DNA of 48,111 nucleotides from Opitutales bacterium (GCA_900299415.1 OMJT01000022.1:1-48111); one strand, 5' to 3'; positions 2,610 to 40,567 are shown, counted from the stretch's first letter. Notes: a model not told the origin generated them from the sequence alone. Made by a program: numbers and translations.

Positions 2610-3392
2610 TCAGTCTTTCAGCCCGAATCGCTTGATCACCTCGGTGGTGAGTGCCGTGTAGGCCTCGGCGCCGAGGCTGTCGGGGTCATAGGCAAAAATC
2701 GGCTTCCCGAAGCTCGGGGCCTCGCTGAGACGGACGGTGCGCGGGATGACGGTGTGGAAGACCTTGTCGGGGAGGTGTTGCTTCACCTCGTCGACGACCT
2801 GCTTGGAGAGGTTGGTGCGGCCGTCGTACATCGTCATGATTACGCCGCCGAGCTCGAGGGCGGGGTTGACGTTGGCGGACTTGAGGCGCTCAACGTTCCG
2901 CAGGATCTGGCCGAGGCCCTCGAGGGCCATGTACTCGCATTGGAGCGTGATCAGCAGCTGGTCGGCGGCGGCGAGGCTGTTCATCGAGAGCATGCCGAGC
3001 GCGGGCGGGCAGTCGATGATGATGGCGCGGAAGCCGGCGGACTGGCGGATCGGGTCGATCACGCCGCGCAGGCGGGCGAGGTAGTTCTCGGTCTGGGCGA
3101 GTTCGATCTCGGCGGCCGCGAGGTCCTCCTCGCTCGGGATGAGTGCGAGGTGCTCGTAGGCCGTCGGCGTGATCATGCTGAAGGCCAACCCCTCGCCGCG
3201 CAGTGGGCCGTAGAGGCTCTTCCCCTCCTGCTTCTCGATGCCGACGGCACTCGTCGCGTTCGCCTGCGGGTCGAGGTCGATGAGCAGGGTGTGGACCTTC
3301 CTGGCCGCAAGGCCGGCCGCGAGGTTGACGGCAGTGGTGGTTTTGCCGACGCCGCCCTTCTGGTTGGCGATGGTGAAGACGGTGGTGGCCAT
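2610..3392 (-). CDS. parA: ParA/Soj-family partition ATPase
   Basis: Deviant Walker A KGGVGKTT and LIDLDPQANAT, with Soj-like sequence throughout. The ORF track starts at TTG 3404; ATG 3392 (MATTVFTIANQKGG) is preferred. No parB is adjacent. Confidence 0.9.
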   Translation of the reverse strand: MATTVFTIANQKGGVGKTTTAVNLAAGLAARKVHTLLIDLDPQANATSAVGIEKQEGKSLYGPLRGEGLAFSMITPTAYEHLALIPSEEDLAAAEIELAQTENYLARLRGVIDPIRQSAGFRAIIIDCPPALGMLSMNSLAAADQLLITLQCEYMALEGLGQILRNVERLKSANVNPALELGGVIMTMYDGRTNLSKQVVDEVKQHLPDKVFHTVIPRTVRLSEAPSFGKPIFAYDPDSLGAEAYTALTTEVIKRFGLKD

Positions 3393-35668: not shown

Positions 35669-36259
35669 ATGGCCGACGACCAGTCGTTCGATCTGGCTGG
35701 CTGTCTCGAGCGCGTCCGCAAACGCGACCAGGCGGCGGCTCGCGAACTTGTGGAACACCTTCACCCGATGGTCATTCGGATCGTGCGGTCGCATTTGCCC
35801 CGGCGTGTTTCCGAAGAGGATCTCACCCAGGAAATCTTCCTGAAAATGTTCACCCGCATCGAACAGTACCAGGGCGCCGTCCCGTTCTCCCACTGGGTCT
35901 CCCGGATCGCGGTGACGACGTGCATCGACCACCTGCGGGCGCAGAAGCGCCGGCCGGAGTTCCGCTGGGCCGACCTCTCCGAGAACGAGGCAGATATGCT
36001 CGACGCGGTCATGACCAACGAGAATGCGGTCGACACCGCCGATGCGCTCGCCGCGCGCGAACTCGTCTACAAGCTCCTCGACCAGCTCCGGCCCGACGAC
36101 CGGATGGTGATCCAGCTGCTCGACCTCGAGCAGAAGACGATCGCCGAGATCAGCGCCCTGACCGGCTGGACCGGATCCCTCGTCAAAGTTCGGGCTTTCC
36201 GGGCCCGGCGTAGACTGCACAAGCTGTTTCAGGAATTGAAGCGAAAGGAAGGCTCATGA
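35669..36259 (+). CDS. ECF (group 4) RNA polymerase sigma factor
   Basis: Region 2 (DLTQEIFLKMF, FSHWVSRIAVTTCIDHLR) and region 4 (QKTIAEISALTGWTGSLVKVRAFRARRRL). 196 aa. Confidence 0.9.
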   Translation: MADDQSFDLAGCLERVRKRDQAAARELVEHLHPMVIRIVRSHLPRRVSEEDLTQEIFLKMFTRIEQYQGAVPFSHWVSRIAVTTCIDHLRAQKRRPEFRWADLSENEADMLDAVMTNENAVDTADALAARELVYKLLDQLRPDDRMVIQLLDLEQKTIAEISALTGWTGSLVKVRAFRARRRLHKLFQELKRKEGS

Positions 36260-36567
36260 ACTCCCACGACACCCGCCAGATCTGGACGCGACTCGCCGCC
36301 TTGGCCCGCCGCGCCCCCGCCGATTCGCGTGACGACTCGGCCCCGCTGGGCTTTGCGACACGCGTCGCCGCCCTCGCGTTCGAGGAGTCGGAGCGCCGCG
36401 TGGCCTCGCTGTTCGAGATGCTCGCCCCGCGCGCCCTGTGGATCGCCGCCGTGCTGGTCGTCGCCAGCGTGCTCGTGAACTATTCGTCCTTCGGCCTCTC
36501 CGCCGGTGCGGAGGATGCCGCGCCGACCGTGGATGACCCGGTCGCGATGCTCTTCGGCCAGTCCTGA
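36256..36567 (+). CDS. Putative anti-sigma factor (single-pass membrane protein)
   Basis: Its ATG overlaps the sigma stop (ATGA). It has one TM helix (ALWIAAVLVVASVLVNY). The call rests on position and topology only. Confidence 0.5.
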   Translation: MNSHDTRQIWTRLAALARRAPADSRDDSAPLGFATRVAALAFEESERRVASLFEMLAPRALWIAAVLVVASVLVNYSSFGLSAGAEDAAPTVDDPVAMLFGQS

Positions 36568-36572
36568 ACCGT

Positions 36573-37193
36573 ATGGGCAACATCTGGAAAGTCGTCGTGG
36601 CCTTCGTCGGCGTATTTATCGCCGGCTCGGTGTTCGGCGGCTTTTTTGCCCTGGGTGTCGGCCAGCGCATGATGGAGGGCCGCCGTCCGGTCCAGTTTAC
36701 CGACCCGGGCCTCCTGCAACGCTATGTCGAGCGCCTGCAGCTCACCGAGGAGCAAAAGACCAAGATCAAGCCGATCCTCGACAAGACCCAGTCGGAAGTG
36801 AACGAGATCCGCCGGCAGGCCACGATCGATACGGCCGCGGTCATCAAGCCGATCGTCGAGAAGGCCGAGACCGACCTGAAGGAGATCCTGACGGCCGAGC
36901 AAAGCGCCAAGTTGGGCGACCTGCAGAAGAACCGCGATCTCAATCCCGATTTCCAGAGCCGCGGTGGCCGGGGCGGCCCCCCAGGCAATTTCCCGAATCG
37001 CGGTGGCGGCTCCGGTGGGCAGGGTTTTGGCGGCGACCGCAGCGGTCGCAGCGGTCCCGGCGGCCAAGGCTTTGGCGGCGGCGAACGTGGCGGTCGCGGG
37101 GGTTTCCCGAGCCCCGGTCCGGATCAGCGTCCCACCACCACAAAGGCTGGAGCGCCAGCGGCTCCCGCAGTGCCGGCGCCGGCCGGCAACTGA
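36573..37193 (+). CDS. Spy/CpxP-like LTXXQ periplasmic protein with Gly/Arg-rich tail
   Basis: Signal-anchor, two LTxxQ motifs (LQLTEEQKTKI, ILTAEQSAKL), then an RGG-rich tail (RGGRGGPPGNFPNRGGGSGGQGFGG...GGQGFGGGERGGRGG). Confidence 0.7.
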   Translation: MGNIWKVVVAFVGVFIAGSVFGGFFALGVGQRMMEGRRPVQFTDPGLLQRYVERLQLTEEQKTKIKPILDKTQSEVNEIRRQATIDTAAVIKPIVEKAETDLKEILTAEQSAKLGDLQKNRDLNPDFQSRGGRGGPPGNFPNRGGGSGGQGFGGDRSGRSGPGGQGFGGGERGGRGGFPSPGPDQRPTTTKAGAPAAPAVPAPAGN

Positions 37194-37227
37194 TTGTGTT
37201 TGCGCCCCGACCCGGGCGCCGCATGTT

Positions 37228-37340
37228 CCGCGCCGGCCAGGTGCCATGCATGGGCAGGCGCGTGAACTCCGCCAGGGCCGGAAGGCAGCAACGGTAACGA
37301 CGTCCTCCCAGTGCCGTGGAGTGCCTGGCCACTTTTTTTC
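37228..37340 (+). ncRNA. ffs: Signal recognition particle RNA (small, 4.5S-type); ends approximate
   Basis: Contains the universal domain IV core GUGAACUCCGCCAGGGCC-GGAA-GGCAGCAACGGUAACG, with a GNAR tetraloop and AGG/AGCA symmetric loop. It sits in a long imperfect hairpin closed by GGCCAGG (37235-41) and CCTGGCC (37324-30), followed by a T7 run. It lies directly upstream of dnaX, a common synteny. Confidence 0.7.
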
Positions 37341-37381
37341 CCGCGAGCGAACCTGAGCGTCGGGACGCGTGACCGGGAGAG

Positions 37382-38614
37382 ATGCCGGCGACCCACGCGG
37401 AAAAAACTCTGGATGACATTTTCCCTCTTGTCGCTTCCGCGCACTTTCCCTCTCACTTTCTCCTTCACTTGAGCGCCCCCTACCAAGTCATCGCCCGCAA
37501 GTGGCGCCCGCAGGGCTTCGCGGATGTCGTGGGGCAGGATCATGTAGTCCGCACGCTGCGCAATGCCATCGCCCGCGGACGCATCGCCCACGCCTATCTC
37601 TTCGTCGGTCCCCGTGGCACGGGAAAAACCTCCACCGCCCGCATCTTCGCCAAGGCCCTGAACTGCACCGGCGGGCCCAAGGCGGACTTCGACCCGCAGG
37701 ACCCGGCCTGCCAGGCCATTGCTGAAGGCACCCACCTCGATGTCATCGAGATCGACGGCGCCTCAAACAACGGCGTCGACCAGGTCCGCGACCTGCGTGA
37801 CACCGTGCGATATGCTCCGGCGCAGGGCCGCTTCAAGATCTACATCATCGACGAGGTGCACATGCTCTCGACTGCGGCCTTCAACGCCCTGCTCAAGACG
37901 CTGGAGGAACCGCCCGAGCACGTGAAGTTCGTGTTTGCCACGACCGATGTACAGAAGGTGCTCCCGACCATCCTCTCGCGCTGCCAGCGCTTCGACCTGC
38001 GGCCGATTCCGTCTGAGCTCATTGCCGGTCGCCTCGCGACCATCGCCAAGGAGGAAAAGATCAAAGCCACCCCCGAGGCGCTCGCCTGCATTGCTCGCCT
38101 CGCCGACGGCGGCATGCGTGACGCCCAGTCGATCCTGGACCAGATGATTTCCTTTTGCGGCTCCACAATCTCCGAGCCCGATGTCCTAGATGTCTACGGC
38201 CTGGTTTCGGGAGAAAAGGTCGCCGCGCTGGCCGCCGCGCTGGCTGCCGCCGACCACCGTCGCATTGTGGCGATCATTGACGAATGCGATGCCGCGGGCC
38301 GCGACCTAGTTCGCCTGCTTAATGATCTCCAGGCTCTGGTGCGGGCGGCGCTGCTCGATTCGATCGCTCGGGCCGGCCGGAGTGCGAACCTCGGCTCCGA
38401 GCTGACCACCGAGCAACTCACCCGCCTGCTCGATGCCCTCCGCGAGGGCGAGGGCGGGGTGAAGCTGGGGCTGGCCGAGCGCGTCAATTTCGAAGTCGTC
38501 CTGCTCAAGGCGGTTGAGGCCAGCCGGGCCCGTGCCCTCGACAGCCTGATCAAGGAGCTTGCGGCCCTTGCCGACGAAGCCCCGGCCGCGGGGGCCGAAA
38601 AAAAAAAGGACTGA
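37382..38614 (+). CDS. dnaX: DNA polymerase III subunit gamma/tau, 0-frame product (gamma-sized)
   Basis: [19 protein letters not shown], Walker [16 protein letters not shown] and SRCQRF. The alternative start TTG 37469 ([14 protein letters not shown]) follows a C/T-rich leader. The frame ends at TGA 38612-14, four codons after an A10 run. Confidence 0.9.
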
Positions 38615-38928
38615 TTGACCGGTTGGAGGAGCGATTGGCCGGAGCCAATGCGATTGCCCCGGTCATATCTGTCCGCGAAGTGATTGCAGCCGATGACGAA
38701 TCCACAGTCTGGCCGGAGGGTTCCACCGCGGTCGTGATTGCGGAGGCCCCTGTGGTCATGCCGGCCACTGGGCAGGCGGTATTGAGCGACGTCTCCGGCG
38801 GACCGCTGCCGGCGCTCGATCTCATGGTCCGGCGCATCCCGCCTTCGGTGCGTGAAGCGCTCGATGACCTGTTTCGGGTGAAATTTACTGCCGTGACCCG
38901 AGTGACGGATCGTGAGCTGAGGAAGTAG
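38602..38928 (+). CDS. dnaX: -1 frame continuation of dnaX (putative tau-specific C-terminal region)
   Basis: The -1 frame is open from the A10 run through 38928. It ends ...[23 protein letters not shown], resembling the conserved C-terminal segment of tau proteins. The ORF track lists it as 38623..38928. Confidence 0.55.
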
Positions 38929-38958
38929 CGCCTGGGCACGCTCACCCGGGGTGACGAA

Positions 38959-39318
38959 TCACAGCTTCCAGGTGGACCCAAGCCGCGGGCGGCCCTCGAG
39001 GCTGCGGTGGTAGAGGTAAGATTGCGCGCGGTGGCTGGCGAAAGGCGGCTCGAGTTGCACGGCTTCGCGAGTATACAGCCCCTCGGCGAGTCCCTCGAGG
39101 CGGTCAAGGTTGCGCAGACAGTCGTCGTCGATTTCCCAAAGCTCTCCGGTCACGCCGGCAGTTACGTCGGCCGCGCGGACCATGCCGGGATACCCAAATA
39201 GTCCATAGAGCACATACCCCGGAACAGTCACGGCCTCGCCGAGAAAACGCTGTCCCTCAAGGTGGGCGTTGTTCTTGGCGCCCCGTTTCAAAGTCCCGTA
39301 GACAAAGATACGCGTCAT
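38959..39318 (-). CDS. Gamma-glutamylcyclotransferase-like (AIG2/GGACT family) protein
   Basis: IFVYGTLKRG N-terminal motif and a catalytic-type Glu context (GELWEID). 119 aa. Its ATG overlaps the PP2C stop (ATGA). Confidence 0.85.
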   Translation of the reverse strand: MTRIFVYGTLKRGAKNNAHLEGQRFLGEAVTVPGYVLYGLFGYPGMVRAADVTAGVTGELWEIDDDCLRNLDRLEGLAEGLYTREAVQLEPPFASHRAQSYLYHRSLEGRPRLGSTWKL

Positions 39319-40163
39319 GGTTCCGGCGAACCGATTTCTATCACCACTGCAGTGCAGTTGTCACGTCCGGAGCTTCCGACCGCTGCGCGCACGAGATGCT
39401 GTGCCACCGAGAGACCTTCGGGGGCGGCGGGCGGGTGGCGGATGAGGTCATCGAGGCCGGCGTCCCACAGGCCGTCATTCAGGCCGTCGGAGCAAATCAG
39501 GAACCGGTCGCCCGCCTGGCAGCCGACCGCGCCGATGTGTGGCTCGACGAACTGGTGCTGGGCGCCGAGGGCCTGATTGAGGGAGTTGCGGCCGGGGTGG
39601 GACCGCGCCTCGCGCTCGTTGAGCTTGCCCCCGCGGCGCAGCCACCCGACGTAGGTGTGGTCGTGGGTCACCTGCGTAATGCCGCCCGCGGCGGGCAGGT
39701 GGTAGATGCGGCTGTCGCCGAGGTGCCCGAAGTAGCACCAGCCGGGCGTGAACCACGCGAGGCTCAACGTGGCGCCCATACCCGAAAGTTCCTCGTAGGA
39801 ATTGCCGAGCTTGAGCATCTCGCGGTGGATGCTGGCGAACAGTTCCTCGAGCACGTCGTTGAAACCGCGGTCGAGTCCCTGGGCCGCGAACTTGAAGCTC
39901 GAGGGAAGCAGGCGGGTGATGCGCGCGACGGTGATCTTGCTCGCGAACTCGCCCGACTTGGCCCCGCCCATGCCATCGCTCACCGCGAAAACGAAGTCCG
40001 CTCCGGCCAACGAGGCCTGCCCAGTCTTGCCGAGGTAGCGCACCTCGCGACCGTCGAAGGTCAGGGCGAGGAACGAGTCCTCGTTGTTCTGGCGCACCCG
40101 GCCGCGATCAGTTTGTGCCGACCAGGCCAGGGTGCCGGGGAGGAAAGGGGACACCGCGCTCAT
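39315..40163 (-). CDS. PP2C-family Ser/Thr protein phosphatase
   Basis: RQNNEDSF, VSDGMGG, LCSDGL and DNCTAV motifs in PP2C order. Its ATG overlaps the upstream gene stop (ATGA). Confidence 0.9.
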   Translation of the reverse strand: MSAVSPFLPGTLAWSAQTDRGRVRQNNEDSFLALTFDGREVRYLGKTGQASLAGADFVFAVSDGMGGAKSGEFASKITVARITRLLPSSFKFAAQGLDRGFNDVLEELFASIHREMLKLGNSYEELSGMGATLSLAWFTPGWCYFGHLGDSRIYHLPAAGGITQVTHDHTYVGWLRRGGKLNEREARSHPGRNSLNQALGAQHQFVEPHIGAVGCQAGDRFLICSDGLNDGLWDAGLDDLIRHPPAAPEGLSVAQHLVRAAVGSSGRDNCTAVVIEIGSPEP

Positions 40164-40567
40164 GCGTCGGGCTTGAGGGAAGGCCGGCCGGGGTCGTCCA
40201 GCAAGGTCGCGAACTCAAAGTCGATGATGCAGAAGCGCCCGTCCGCGACCCGGTAGGTGATGTTGCGAAGGTACGGATCCTCTTGGCGCTCGCCATAACG
40301 CTCCAATTCTGCAAAAAGCTCCTTCTGCCGGTCCTCGCCCAGGTGCTCGACCCGGGAACCGCAGTTCGAGGTGACCATCCGGAGTTCAGCGGGGTCCGAC
40401 TCAAAAAGGCGGGGGACAAACGGGCATCCGCGGGCCTCGAGGTGCTTCAGGACGCGCACCTCGTTGTCGAACCGTTCCTTGGCCCGGCTGCCCCGGAAAA
40501 TCTTGGTCACCCGGCCGTCATAGCCGATGCGGACCAGGGCCCGGACGGTGTCTTTTCCTTCCTGCAT
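40160..40567 (-). CDS. Mini protein-kinase-like protein (135 aa)
   Basis: From ATG 40567 (preceded by the CCCGTTC leader motif). It has a beta3-like VTKIF Lys, an alphaC-like NEVRVLKHL, a catalytic-loop-like QEDPYLRN (D..N retained) and a DFG-like IIDFEF. There is no activation segment or C-lobe. Confidence 0.5.
   Translation of the reverse strand: MQEGKDTVRALVRIGYDGRVTKIFRGSRAKERFDNEVRVLKHLEARGCPFVPRLFESDPAELRMVTSNCGSRVEHLGEDRQKELFAELERYGERQEDPYLRNITYRVADGRFCIIDFEFATLLDDPGRPSLKPDA

Follow-up and report, generated by a model that had tools for sequence, protein, structure and literature searches.

A conserved adenine run splits dnaX in Opitutaceae and probably acts as a programmed recoding site for the γ and τ forms

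The τ form of DnaX couples polymerases, clamp loader and helicase, and in Escherichia coli it is essential in every cell. In a 48-kb contig from an Opitutales bacterium (GCA_900299415.1, OMJT01000022.1, positions 1-48111; G+C content 66.8%), here called the window over its full length of 48,111 nucleotides, the reading frame that opens dnaX closes just after a run of ten adenines (A10), and the part corresponding to the C terminus of τ continues in the -1 frame. The locus raises the question of how a long DnaX could be made from such a gene, and which machine would have to slip to make it. An initial reading of the window made without database searches (the sequence-only reading) had proposed that slippage, either ribosomal or transcriptional, would be needed for the long form, with a polarity the reverse of that in E. 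coli, and had named a homopolymer assembly error as the trivial alternative. The comparative analysis described here indicates that the site is very probably a programmed recoding site from which both DnaX forms are made, whichever route is used.

The dnaX reading frames in the window

The 0-frame dnaX open reading frame (ORF) lies on the plus strand at 37382-38614; translation from the ATG at 37382 gives 410 amino acids, with a TGA stop at 38612-14, and its 3' end reads GCC GAA AAA AAA AAG GAC TGA. Searches of Pfam and NCBIfam identified DnaX domains I-III in this N-terminal part of the window protein (TIGR02397 dnaX_nterm, 2.4e-126, together with PF13177, PF22608 and PF12169), consistent with the ORF list and the translation. 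The 0-frame product is therefore γ-sized and the break falls at the γ/τ boundary, as the sequence-only reading had recognized, and its coordinates for the run (38598-38607) and for the stop that soon follows all check. The sizes that it gave for the two forms, about 410 and about 515 amino acids, are correct for the ATG at 37382; that start creates 29 additional N-terminal residues that are missing from almost all relatives, which share a common N-terminal start motif. Because the relatives begin at their shared motif, the true start is probably the TTG at 37469, in which case the γ and τ forms would be about 381 and 486 amino acids long rather than 410 and 515.

The A10 run (38598-38607, plus strand) is the sole homopolymer of ten or more nucleotides in the window, and runs of A9 or longer are expected only 0.02 times per window in dinucleotide shuffles. 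In a sequence this rich in G+C the run is thus far beyond chance. Read as encoded in the genome, A10 specifies the γ reading, and an mRNA carrying A11 would specify the τ reading. The last six As and the following G form the heptamer A_AAA_AAG (38602-38608, plus strand), which sits in the X_XXY_YYZ phase relative to the dnaX 0 frame; the codon phase bears out the earlier proposal that it is phased like the E. coli dnaX heptamer, and it is a possible secondary route to τ. Immediately downstream, the octamer CTGATTGA (38611-38618, plus strand) encodes Leu-Ile-Asp in the τ frame and supplies both the 0-frame TGA at 38612-14 and a +1-frame TGA at 38616-18. Owing to this octamer, every non-τ reading closes within 1-3 codons in the window.

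The -1 frame is open from the run, at 38608, to a TAG at 38926-28, and the τ-specific extension that it encodes (38608-38928, plus strand; 106 amino acids and a stop, GLIDRLEE...RELRK) gives a protein of 515 amino acids when fused to the γ ORF from ATG 37382. The sequence-only reading had correctly described the frame as open to 38928 and had counted 107 codons where there are 106 residues; the C-terminal peptide that it quoted had one wrong letter, the window sequence being ...FRVKFTAVT. Alignments reveal an extension composed of a conserved GLIDRLExRL segment, a variable linker, a WP(D/E) motif and a conserved C-terminal end.

Conservation of the run and of the frame split in Opitutaceae

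Public proteins were searched with the fused window protein, and the best 120 DnaX matches were assessed. The closest DnaX proteins are from Opitutaceae, Opitutus and Rariglobus, come from many projects, and are 80-100% identical to the window protein over the aligned part. Of the best 120, 111 have lengths of 353-413 amino acids and an EKKKx C terminus; two others terminate in EKKNx, and only four are continuous, with 505-539 amino acids. Two independent assemblies of one species (P0001 and P0002) both reproduce the 410-amino acid ORF. For the junction itself, metagenome contigs were scanned with the C-terminal τ motif [VL]R[ED][ATV][LIM][DE][DE]L[FY]R alone, independently of the run, which retrieved 80 loci. 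A scan of genome contigs with the whole fused protein was dominated by the generic AAA+ pattern YIIDEVHM and returned five Opitutales loci. Together with the window, three loci from genomes and three more that encode continuous proteins, the 80 motif-found loci make up the set of 87 Opitutaceae junctions.

The most frequent arrangement, found at 63 of the 87 junctions, is A10 with τ in the -1 frame, typically within GAA or CAA AAA AAA AAG GNC TGA. Nineteen junctions have A9 with τ again in the -1 frame, mostly as TCA AAA AAA AAG CCC TGA; three (L081-L083) have A11 with τ in the 0 frame, and two have A9 with τ in the +1 frame, one of these probably with a second indel. One rule therefore fits 82 of the 87 loci: τ results when one A is added to the genomic run or when the frame shifts by -1, and all 82 place this transition at the same site and in the same direction. 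A10 is the consensus in more than 90% of assemblies. Alignment of dnaX from relatives, which had been suggested as a check on the sequence-only reading, thus finds both the A-run and the frame split conserved.

The run varies between A9 and A11 in all 87 loci and never falls below nine As, and codon choice around it points to selection on the nucleotides themselves. Across 79 unique sequences the codon preceding the run is GAA in 57, TCA in 16, CAA in 5 and TTA in 1, so the residue varies (E, Q, S, L) and the third base is A in every case; GAG is absent there from all 79. In the window, by comparison, G-ending codons are favored 4:1 or more for Glu and Lys, with GAG accounting for 80% of the codons for Glu and AAG for 84% of those for Lys (P(GAA|Glu) = 0.20, P(AAA|Lys) = 0.16), yet the run stays A. 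Because the preceding codon always ends in A despite a varying amino acid and GAG-biased usage, we conclude from the alignments that the run is selected at the nucleotide level for at least nine As. The surroundings of the run are also constrained. The base after it is G in 78 of the 79 unique relatives, although the τ-frame residue at that point varies (G, A, D), A_AAA_AAG is in phase in all 82 loci requiring a -1 shift, and positions +4 to +11 after the run are strongly conserved. Of 74 relatives, 72 have a 0-frame stop within 2-3 codons of the run and 60 have a +1-frame stop no more than 4 codons away.

Selection is likewise evident on the extension as a protein. In a 30-codon gap-free block over the conserved C-terminal motif (80 unique sequences), the summed entropies of codon positions 1, 2 and 3 in the τ frame are 19.8, 13.8 and 43.4, respectively. 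Because the third position is far more variable than the first two, the codon pattern identifies the τ-frame product as a protein under purifying selection. In L081-L083, the A11 loci, and in locus L005 from Puniceicoccaceae, DnaX simply reads in frame through the extension. The earlier proposal that slippage is needed for the long τ, with a polarity opposite to that of E. coli, is accordingly strengthened by a -1 ORF that is selected as coding and that is fused to dnaX in the A11 variants.

The putative τ function of the extension is less easily recognized. Pfam and NCBIfam searches of the extension gave no match. When it was compared by hhalign with the motif at the C terminus of other Verrucomicrobial DnaX proteins (...DPLIQKALEIFKGxIVEVR), the expected residues aligned and the match was weak (P = 0.0085, probability 4.7%). 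The AlphaFold2 model of the extension is mostly disordered (mean predicted local distance difference test score 59), with a disordered linker and confident helices solely at residues 70-92. The resemblance to τ C termini noted in the sequence-only reading is thus only weakly detectable by profile methods. In E. coli τ, domain IV binds DnaB and domain V binds the α subunit of DNA polymerase III (Pol III) (PMC11470591); by analogy, a putative terminal binding motif carried on a flexible tether would fit this picture.

Gene order around dnaX is kept in relatives. In the window (36250-40200), as in L082 and L083, an ECF sigma factor gene and two small ORFs precede dnaX, and convergent GGACT-family and PP2C phosphatase genes lie 3' of it; this conserved order supports the orthology of the dnaX loci compared. 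The product of the window ORF at 36573-37193 has a Gly/Arg-rich C terminus.

Polymerase or ribosome at the adenine run

Transcriptional slippage is, in our estimate, the main route to τ, a reading that the sequence comparisons make probable rather than certain. Faithful transcription and translation would produce a short γ-like clamp-loader subunit ending in ...AEKKKD. In a fraction of transcripts RNA polymerase would slip on A10 and insert one non-templated A, and ordinary translation of the resulting A11 mRNAs would continue through to 38928, yielding a long τ-like subunit whose flexible linker and conserved helical C-terminal motif presumably tether Pol III α and the helicase. Messages with A9 or A12 would reach the second TGA and give γ-like products again. 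Ribosomes on unslipped mRNA may in addition shift to -1 at A_AAA_AAG and make an identical τ protein, so that ribosomal frameshifting plausibly adds to transcriptional slippage in a mixed contribution. The ratio of τ to γ would be set by the slippage rate.

Several features favor slippage by the polymerase. The run always has at least nine As, though a ribosomal heptamer needs only six As and a G; the codon in front of it keeps a final A while its residue varies and codon usage favors G; no RNA stimulator is conserved; and the polarity of the gene switches with a single base. Furthermore, about 50% of the product from the A9 run of Thermus dnaX is slipped, most of it carrying extra As (PMC1088944; PMC5009743). 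Because Thermus slippage mostly adds As, a genome encoding τ minus one A would draw on the commonest class of slip.

In the strongest competing explanation, a uniform A10 mRNA would be the main source of τ through -1 programmed ribosomal frameshifting, the mechanism being that of E. coli with the products swapped, and the extra 5' As would be incidental. We consider it unlikely, and several observations nevertheless weigh in its favor and against a transcriptional route. The heptamer is correctly phased in 82 of the 87 loci, and ribosomal -1 frameshifting accounts just as well for this phasing and for the near-invariant G (78 of 79). With E. coli ribosomes in vitro, A_AAA_AAG alone is an efficient signal that directs about 14-16% frameshifting (bioRxiv 10.1101/2025.10.02.679949), and Atkins et al. 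(2016) discuss frameshifting as a possibility for some reversed dnaX genes, e.g., that of Chlorobium phaeobacteroides (PMC5009743). The window also has a predicted structure that begins about 5 nucleotides past the heptamer, a placement that suits ribosomal frameshifting. The loci share ancestry as well, so the conservation of phase and of the G represents few independent events. What tells against the ribosome as the main agent is that six As and a G would suffice for it, yet the run is at least nine As long and its extra positions stay A against codon bias; that neither a downstream stem-loop nor an upstream Shine-Dalgarno-like element is conserved; and that a G+C-rich host probably has a tRNA-Lys(CUU) reading AAG, which would lower shiftiness. 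The sequence examined contained no tRNA-Lys genes.

The possible stimulators were assessed by folding. In the window, the downstream stem-loop predicted in the sequence-only reading, with GACCGG (38617-22) paired to CCGGTC (38659-64) around an inner hairpin at 38634-49, is indeed the minimum-energy fold (38613-38669, plus strand; -24.7 kcal/mol, z = -2.55). It is specific to the window sequence and probably not required. The 60 nucleotides after the run in 79 unique sequences have a mean z of -0.31 and a median z of -0.05, near those of shuffles, and RNAalifold on 70 in-register sequences returned an empty consensus with no pairs in the 48 nucleotides after the run; a conserved downstream stimulator was rejected on these grounds. 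Because the hairpin is not conserved in relatives, a role for it as a required stimulator appears unlikely. Upstream, no GGAGG-like consensus was found in the 15 nucleotides before the run (at most 1.1 bits per position, 79 unique sequences), and the Rfam element for E. coli DnaX frameshifting gave no match even at E <= 10.

A nascent-RNA hairpin lying directly against the 5' edge of the run was also considered as a conserved stimulator, of the kind that Penno et al., in 2015, reportedly described for transcriptional slippage. G+C-rich hairpins do occur 5' of the run in the window and in several relatives. The 36 nucleotides before the run in relatives nevertheless have a mean z of -0.42, near shuffles, and the abutting-hairpin test gave p = 0.24 (71-79 unique sequences); being no stronger or better placed than in shuffles, this candidate was rejected. 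The window itself has a strong predicted hairpin at 38562-38597 (GGCCCUUGCC...GGGGGCC) that ends one base before the A10 run. The window run is thus flanked by predicted structures on both sides, neither of which is conserved in relatives.

We tentatively entertain a broader and less probable possibility, in which the run is a dual-level recoding signal: RNA polymerase, by adding one A, and the ribosome, by shifting -1, would both feed τ, genomic A10/A11 polymorphism would allow lineages to retune or invert the τ:γ ratio by changing one base, and the runs found in other phyla would imply a common slippage strategy.

Run-length variants, and a split gene or assembly error as improbable alternatives

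Comparison of A10 and A11 loci indicates that dnaX polarity switches with a single base. In the A11 forms, which have τ in frame, each of the other two frames reaches a stop after 5-7 codons, like those of Thermus. L005 has kept A10 with τ in frame, reading GAA AAA AAA AAC GCG.... At least three separate lineages carry A11 alleles with τ in frame (L081, 1309-1319; L082, 2651-2661; L083, 2666-2676). L081 (A11) and L125 (A10) are 95% identical over 1.6 kb, and their difference is either a true run-length polymorphism or a homopolymer error. One A9 locus, L139, would require the addition of two As. In L004, an Opitutaceae metagenome-assembled genome (DASRSJ010000033.1, about 3115-3145), the A10 run is present with GGACTGATA and a TAG stands two codons upstream (...GAGCCC TAG GGC GAA AAA...); slippage at the run would be unable to rescue τ there, and the TAG could be either genuine or a sequencing error.

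These variants invite the explanation that τ is supplied by phase variation in the DNA, with replication slippage toggling A10 and A11 within a population. The occurrence of A10 and A11 in near-conspecific assemblies (L125 and L081) and the existence of a variant needing two added As are in keeping with it. If τ is as essential as in E. coli, a lineage fixed at A10 without recoding would be inviable, yet A10 is the consensus, in more than 90% of assemblies. Run-length polymorphism may exist but cannot be the sole source of τ, and we consider phase variation very improbable as the explanation of the split.

Still less probable is a gene that is truly split, with a γ-sized DnaX and a separate downstream polypeptide made by re-initiation or coupling, or with a downstream ORF that is a decaying remnant. 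Gene callers do annotate the downstream ORF separately, as a hypothetical protein of 83-130 amino acids without a Pfam domain, and the window offers a TTG at 38623 from which it could start. This TTG is a synonymous Leu codon that is CTG or CTC in other loci, however, and no conserved start codon belonging to the extension was found among 74 loci, 33 of which have no ATG, GTG or TTG among the first 15 τ-frame codons after the run. Conservation of GLIDRLExRL begins at the very first codon past the run, upstream of any candidate start. Purifying selection on the ORF argues against a remnant, and in the A11 variants and L005 the extension is fused to dnaX in frame.

A homopolymer sequencing or assembly error hiding a genuine A11 and a single continuous τ ORF is the least credible explanation. 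Homopolymers are error-prone and A11 with a continuous ORF does occur (L081-L083 and proteins P0003, P0013, P0017 and P0022), but P0001 and P0002 independently yield the same 410-amino acid ORF, the EKKKx end and the common shift recur across many studies and assemblers, and an error would leave the stop codons in both non-τ frames unexplained. Because the split is kept in more than 100 independent assemblies, we regard assembly error as excluded by these comparisons, and the sequence-only reading was right to treat the split as more than a homopolymer artefact.

Known recoding systems and the meaning of the Opitutaceae arrangement

The architecture has a precedent. Antonov et al. (2013) described a two-ORF, reversed dnaX as GeneTack cluster COF_239165634, with 17 genes from 12 genera, nine of which have A10 (PMC3711429, Supplementary Fig. 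S3). Its members include Chlorobium, Prosthecochloris, Pelodictyon, Flavobacterium, Cytophaga, Capnocytophaga and Coraliomargarita akajimensis, the last of these among the nine with A10, and the authors proposed transcriptional realignment by analogy with Thermus (PMC3711429). The point is restated by Sharma et al. (2014) (PMC4066793) and Atkins et al. (2016) (PMC5009743). As in the window, the ORF for domains I-III ends just past a poly-A run, in most members A10 with a G after it, and the τ C terminus is encoded in the -1 frame, so that the longer product depends on recoding; annotation does not record the genes as recoded. The order of the window organism (Opitutales, Verrucomicrobia) also includes Coraliomargarita. 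Opitutaceae and Opitutus are not among the species shown, and the Opitutaceae run is set in the A_AAA_AAG phase and then followed by CTGATTGA, whereas Chlorobium and Coraliomargarita, judging from the published 30-nucleotide snippets alone, seem to use another phase. We found no paper in the literature reporting an experimental test of reversed-polarity dnaX. On this sequence evidence, the window dnaX is a family-wide Opitutaceae addition to the reversed type published in 2013.

A functional analogy is with Thermus thermophilus dnaX (Larsen et al. 2000, via PMC1088944 and PMC5009743), which likewise has A9-A10 at the γ/τ boundary and close stops in both non-τ frames, and by this analogy the mRNA population of the window organism would be expected to vary in its A count. 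The difference lies in polarity: in Thermus the templated count gives τ and slipped transcripts give γ, whereas in the window the templated count gives γ and one added A would give τ. By analogy, the window site would work like the Thermus arrangement with one A fewer. The Thermus polarity itself is held by the A11 variants L081-L083 and by L005, and switching of polarity has been described for sites near 50% efficiency (Atkins et al. 2016, PMC5009743). In Shigella flexneri mxiE, too, one non-templated nucleotide at a homopolymer is required for a longer functional protein, although mxiE is a non-essential gene for an unrelated transcription activator and its run is T/U rather than A (PMC1088944).

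The E. coli gene offers a different comparison. There, -1 programmed ribosomal frameshifting uses A_AAA_AAG together with an upstream Shine-Dalgarno-like element and a downstream stem-loop. The window shares with it the gene, the site at the end of domain III, and the identical heptamer in the identical phase. The E. coli shift produces γ, however, whereas a -1 shift in the window would produce the longer product; the Shine-Dalgarno-like element and stem-loop are not conserved, the Rfam search found no match, and the run is 9-10 As long. Because the stimulators are not conserved and the polarity of the products is reversed, the window site is not an E. coli-type cassette.

Approximately 75 dnaX loci from outside Opitutaceae were also retrieved, and in about 10 of these an A9-A11 run lies at the same boundary between domain III and the linker with τ in the 0 frame, both other frames closing within 0-9 codons. 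They come from Puniceicoccaceae, Bacteroidetes, Ignavibacteria, Desulfobacteraceae, Fibrobacteria, Leptospira biflexa and G+C-rich Pirellulales, and the boundary runs are positioned at L005 3612-3621, L017 3622, L020 3373, L027 3821, L052 3678, L053 3674, L067 3659, L069 3365, L071 3667 and 3762, and L079 3741. This distribution suggests that Thermus-type γ production by slippage may be far more widespread than annotated, with the proviso that several of these genomes are A+T-rich, where chance may suffice.

In public annotation, the Opitutaceae gene appears as a 'gamma/tau' protein of about 385 amino acids and a separate hypothetical protein, and because annotation splits the gene in two, Opitutaceae proteomes lack full-length DnaX. 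Since the architecture was published in 2013, the conceptual advance is modest; what the present set adds is broad conservation, the 'run + 1' rule, the A9/A10/A11 series and the exposure of a family-wide τ misannotation. The 87 loci form a natural A9/A10/A11 series obeying 'run + 1 = τ', without a conserved RNA stimulator, that would be useful for questions of slippage efficiency and polarity. If the dual-level reading and the wide distribution of A9-A11 runs hold, slippage-based production of γ and τ would be a common and largely unannotated bacterial strategy rather than a Thermus oddity. For Opitutaceae, recoding at this site would mean that τ exists solely through a decoding 'error', and that the stoichiometry of the replisome is tied to the rate of slippage.

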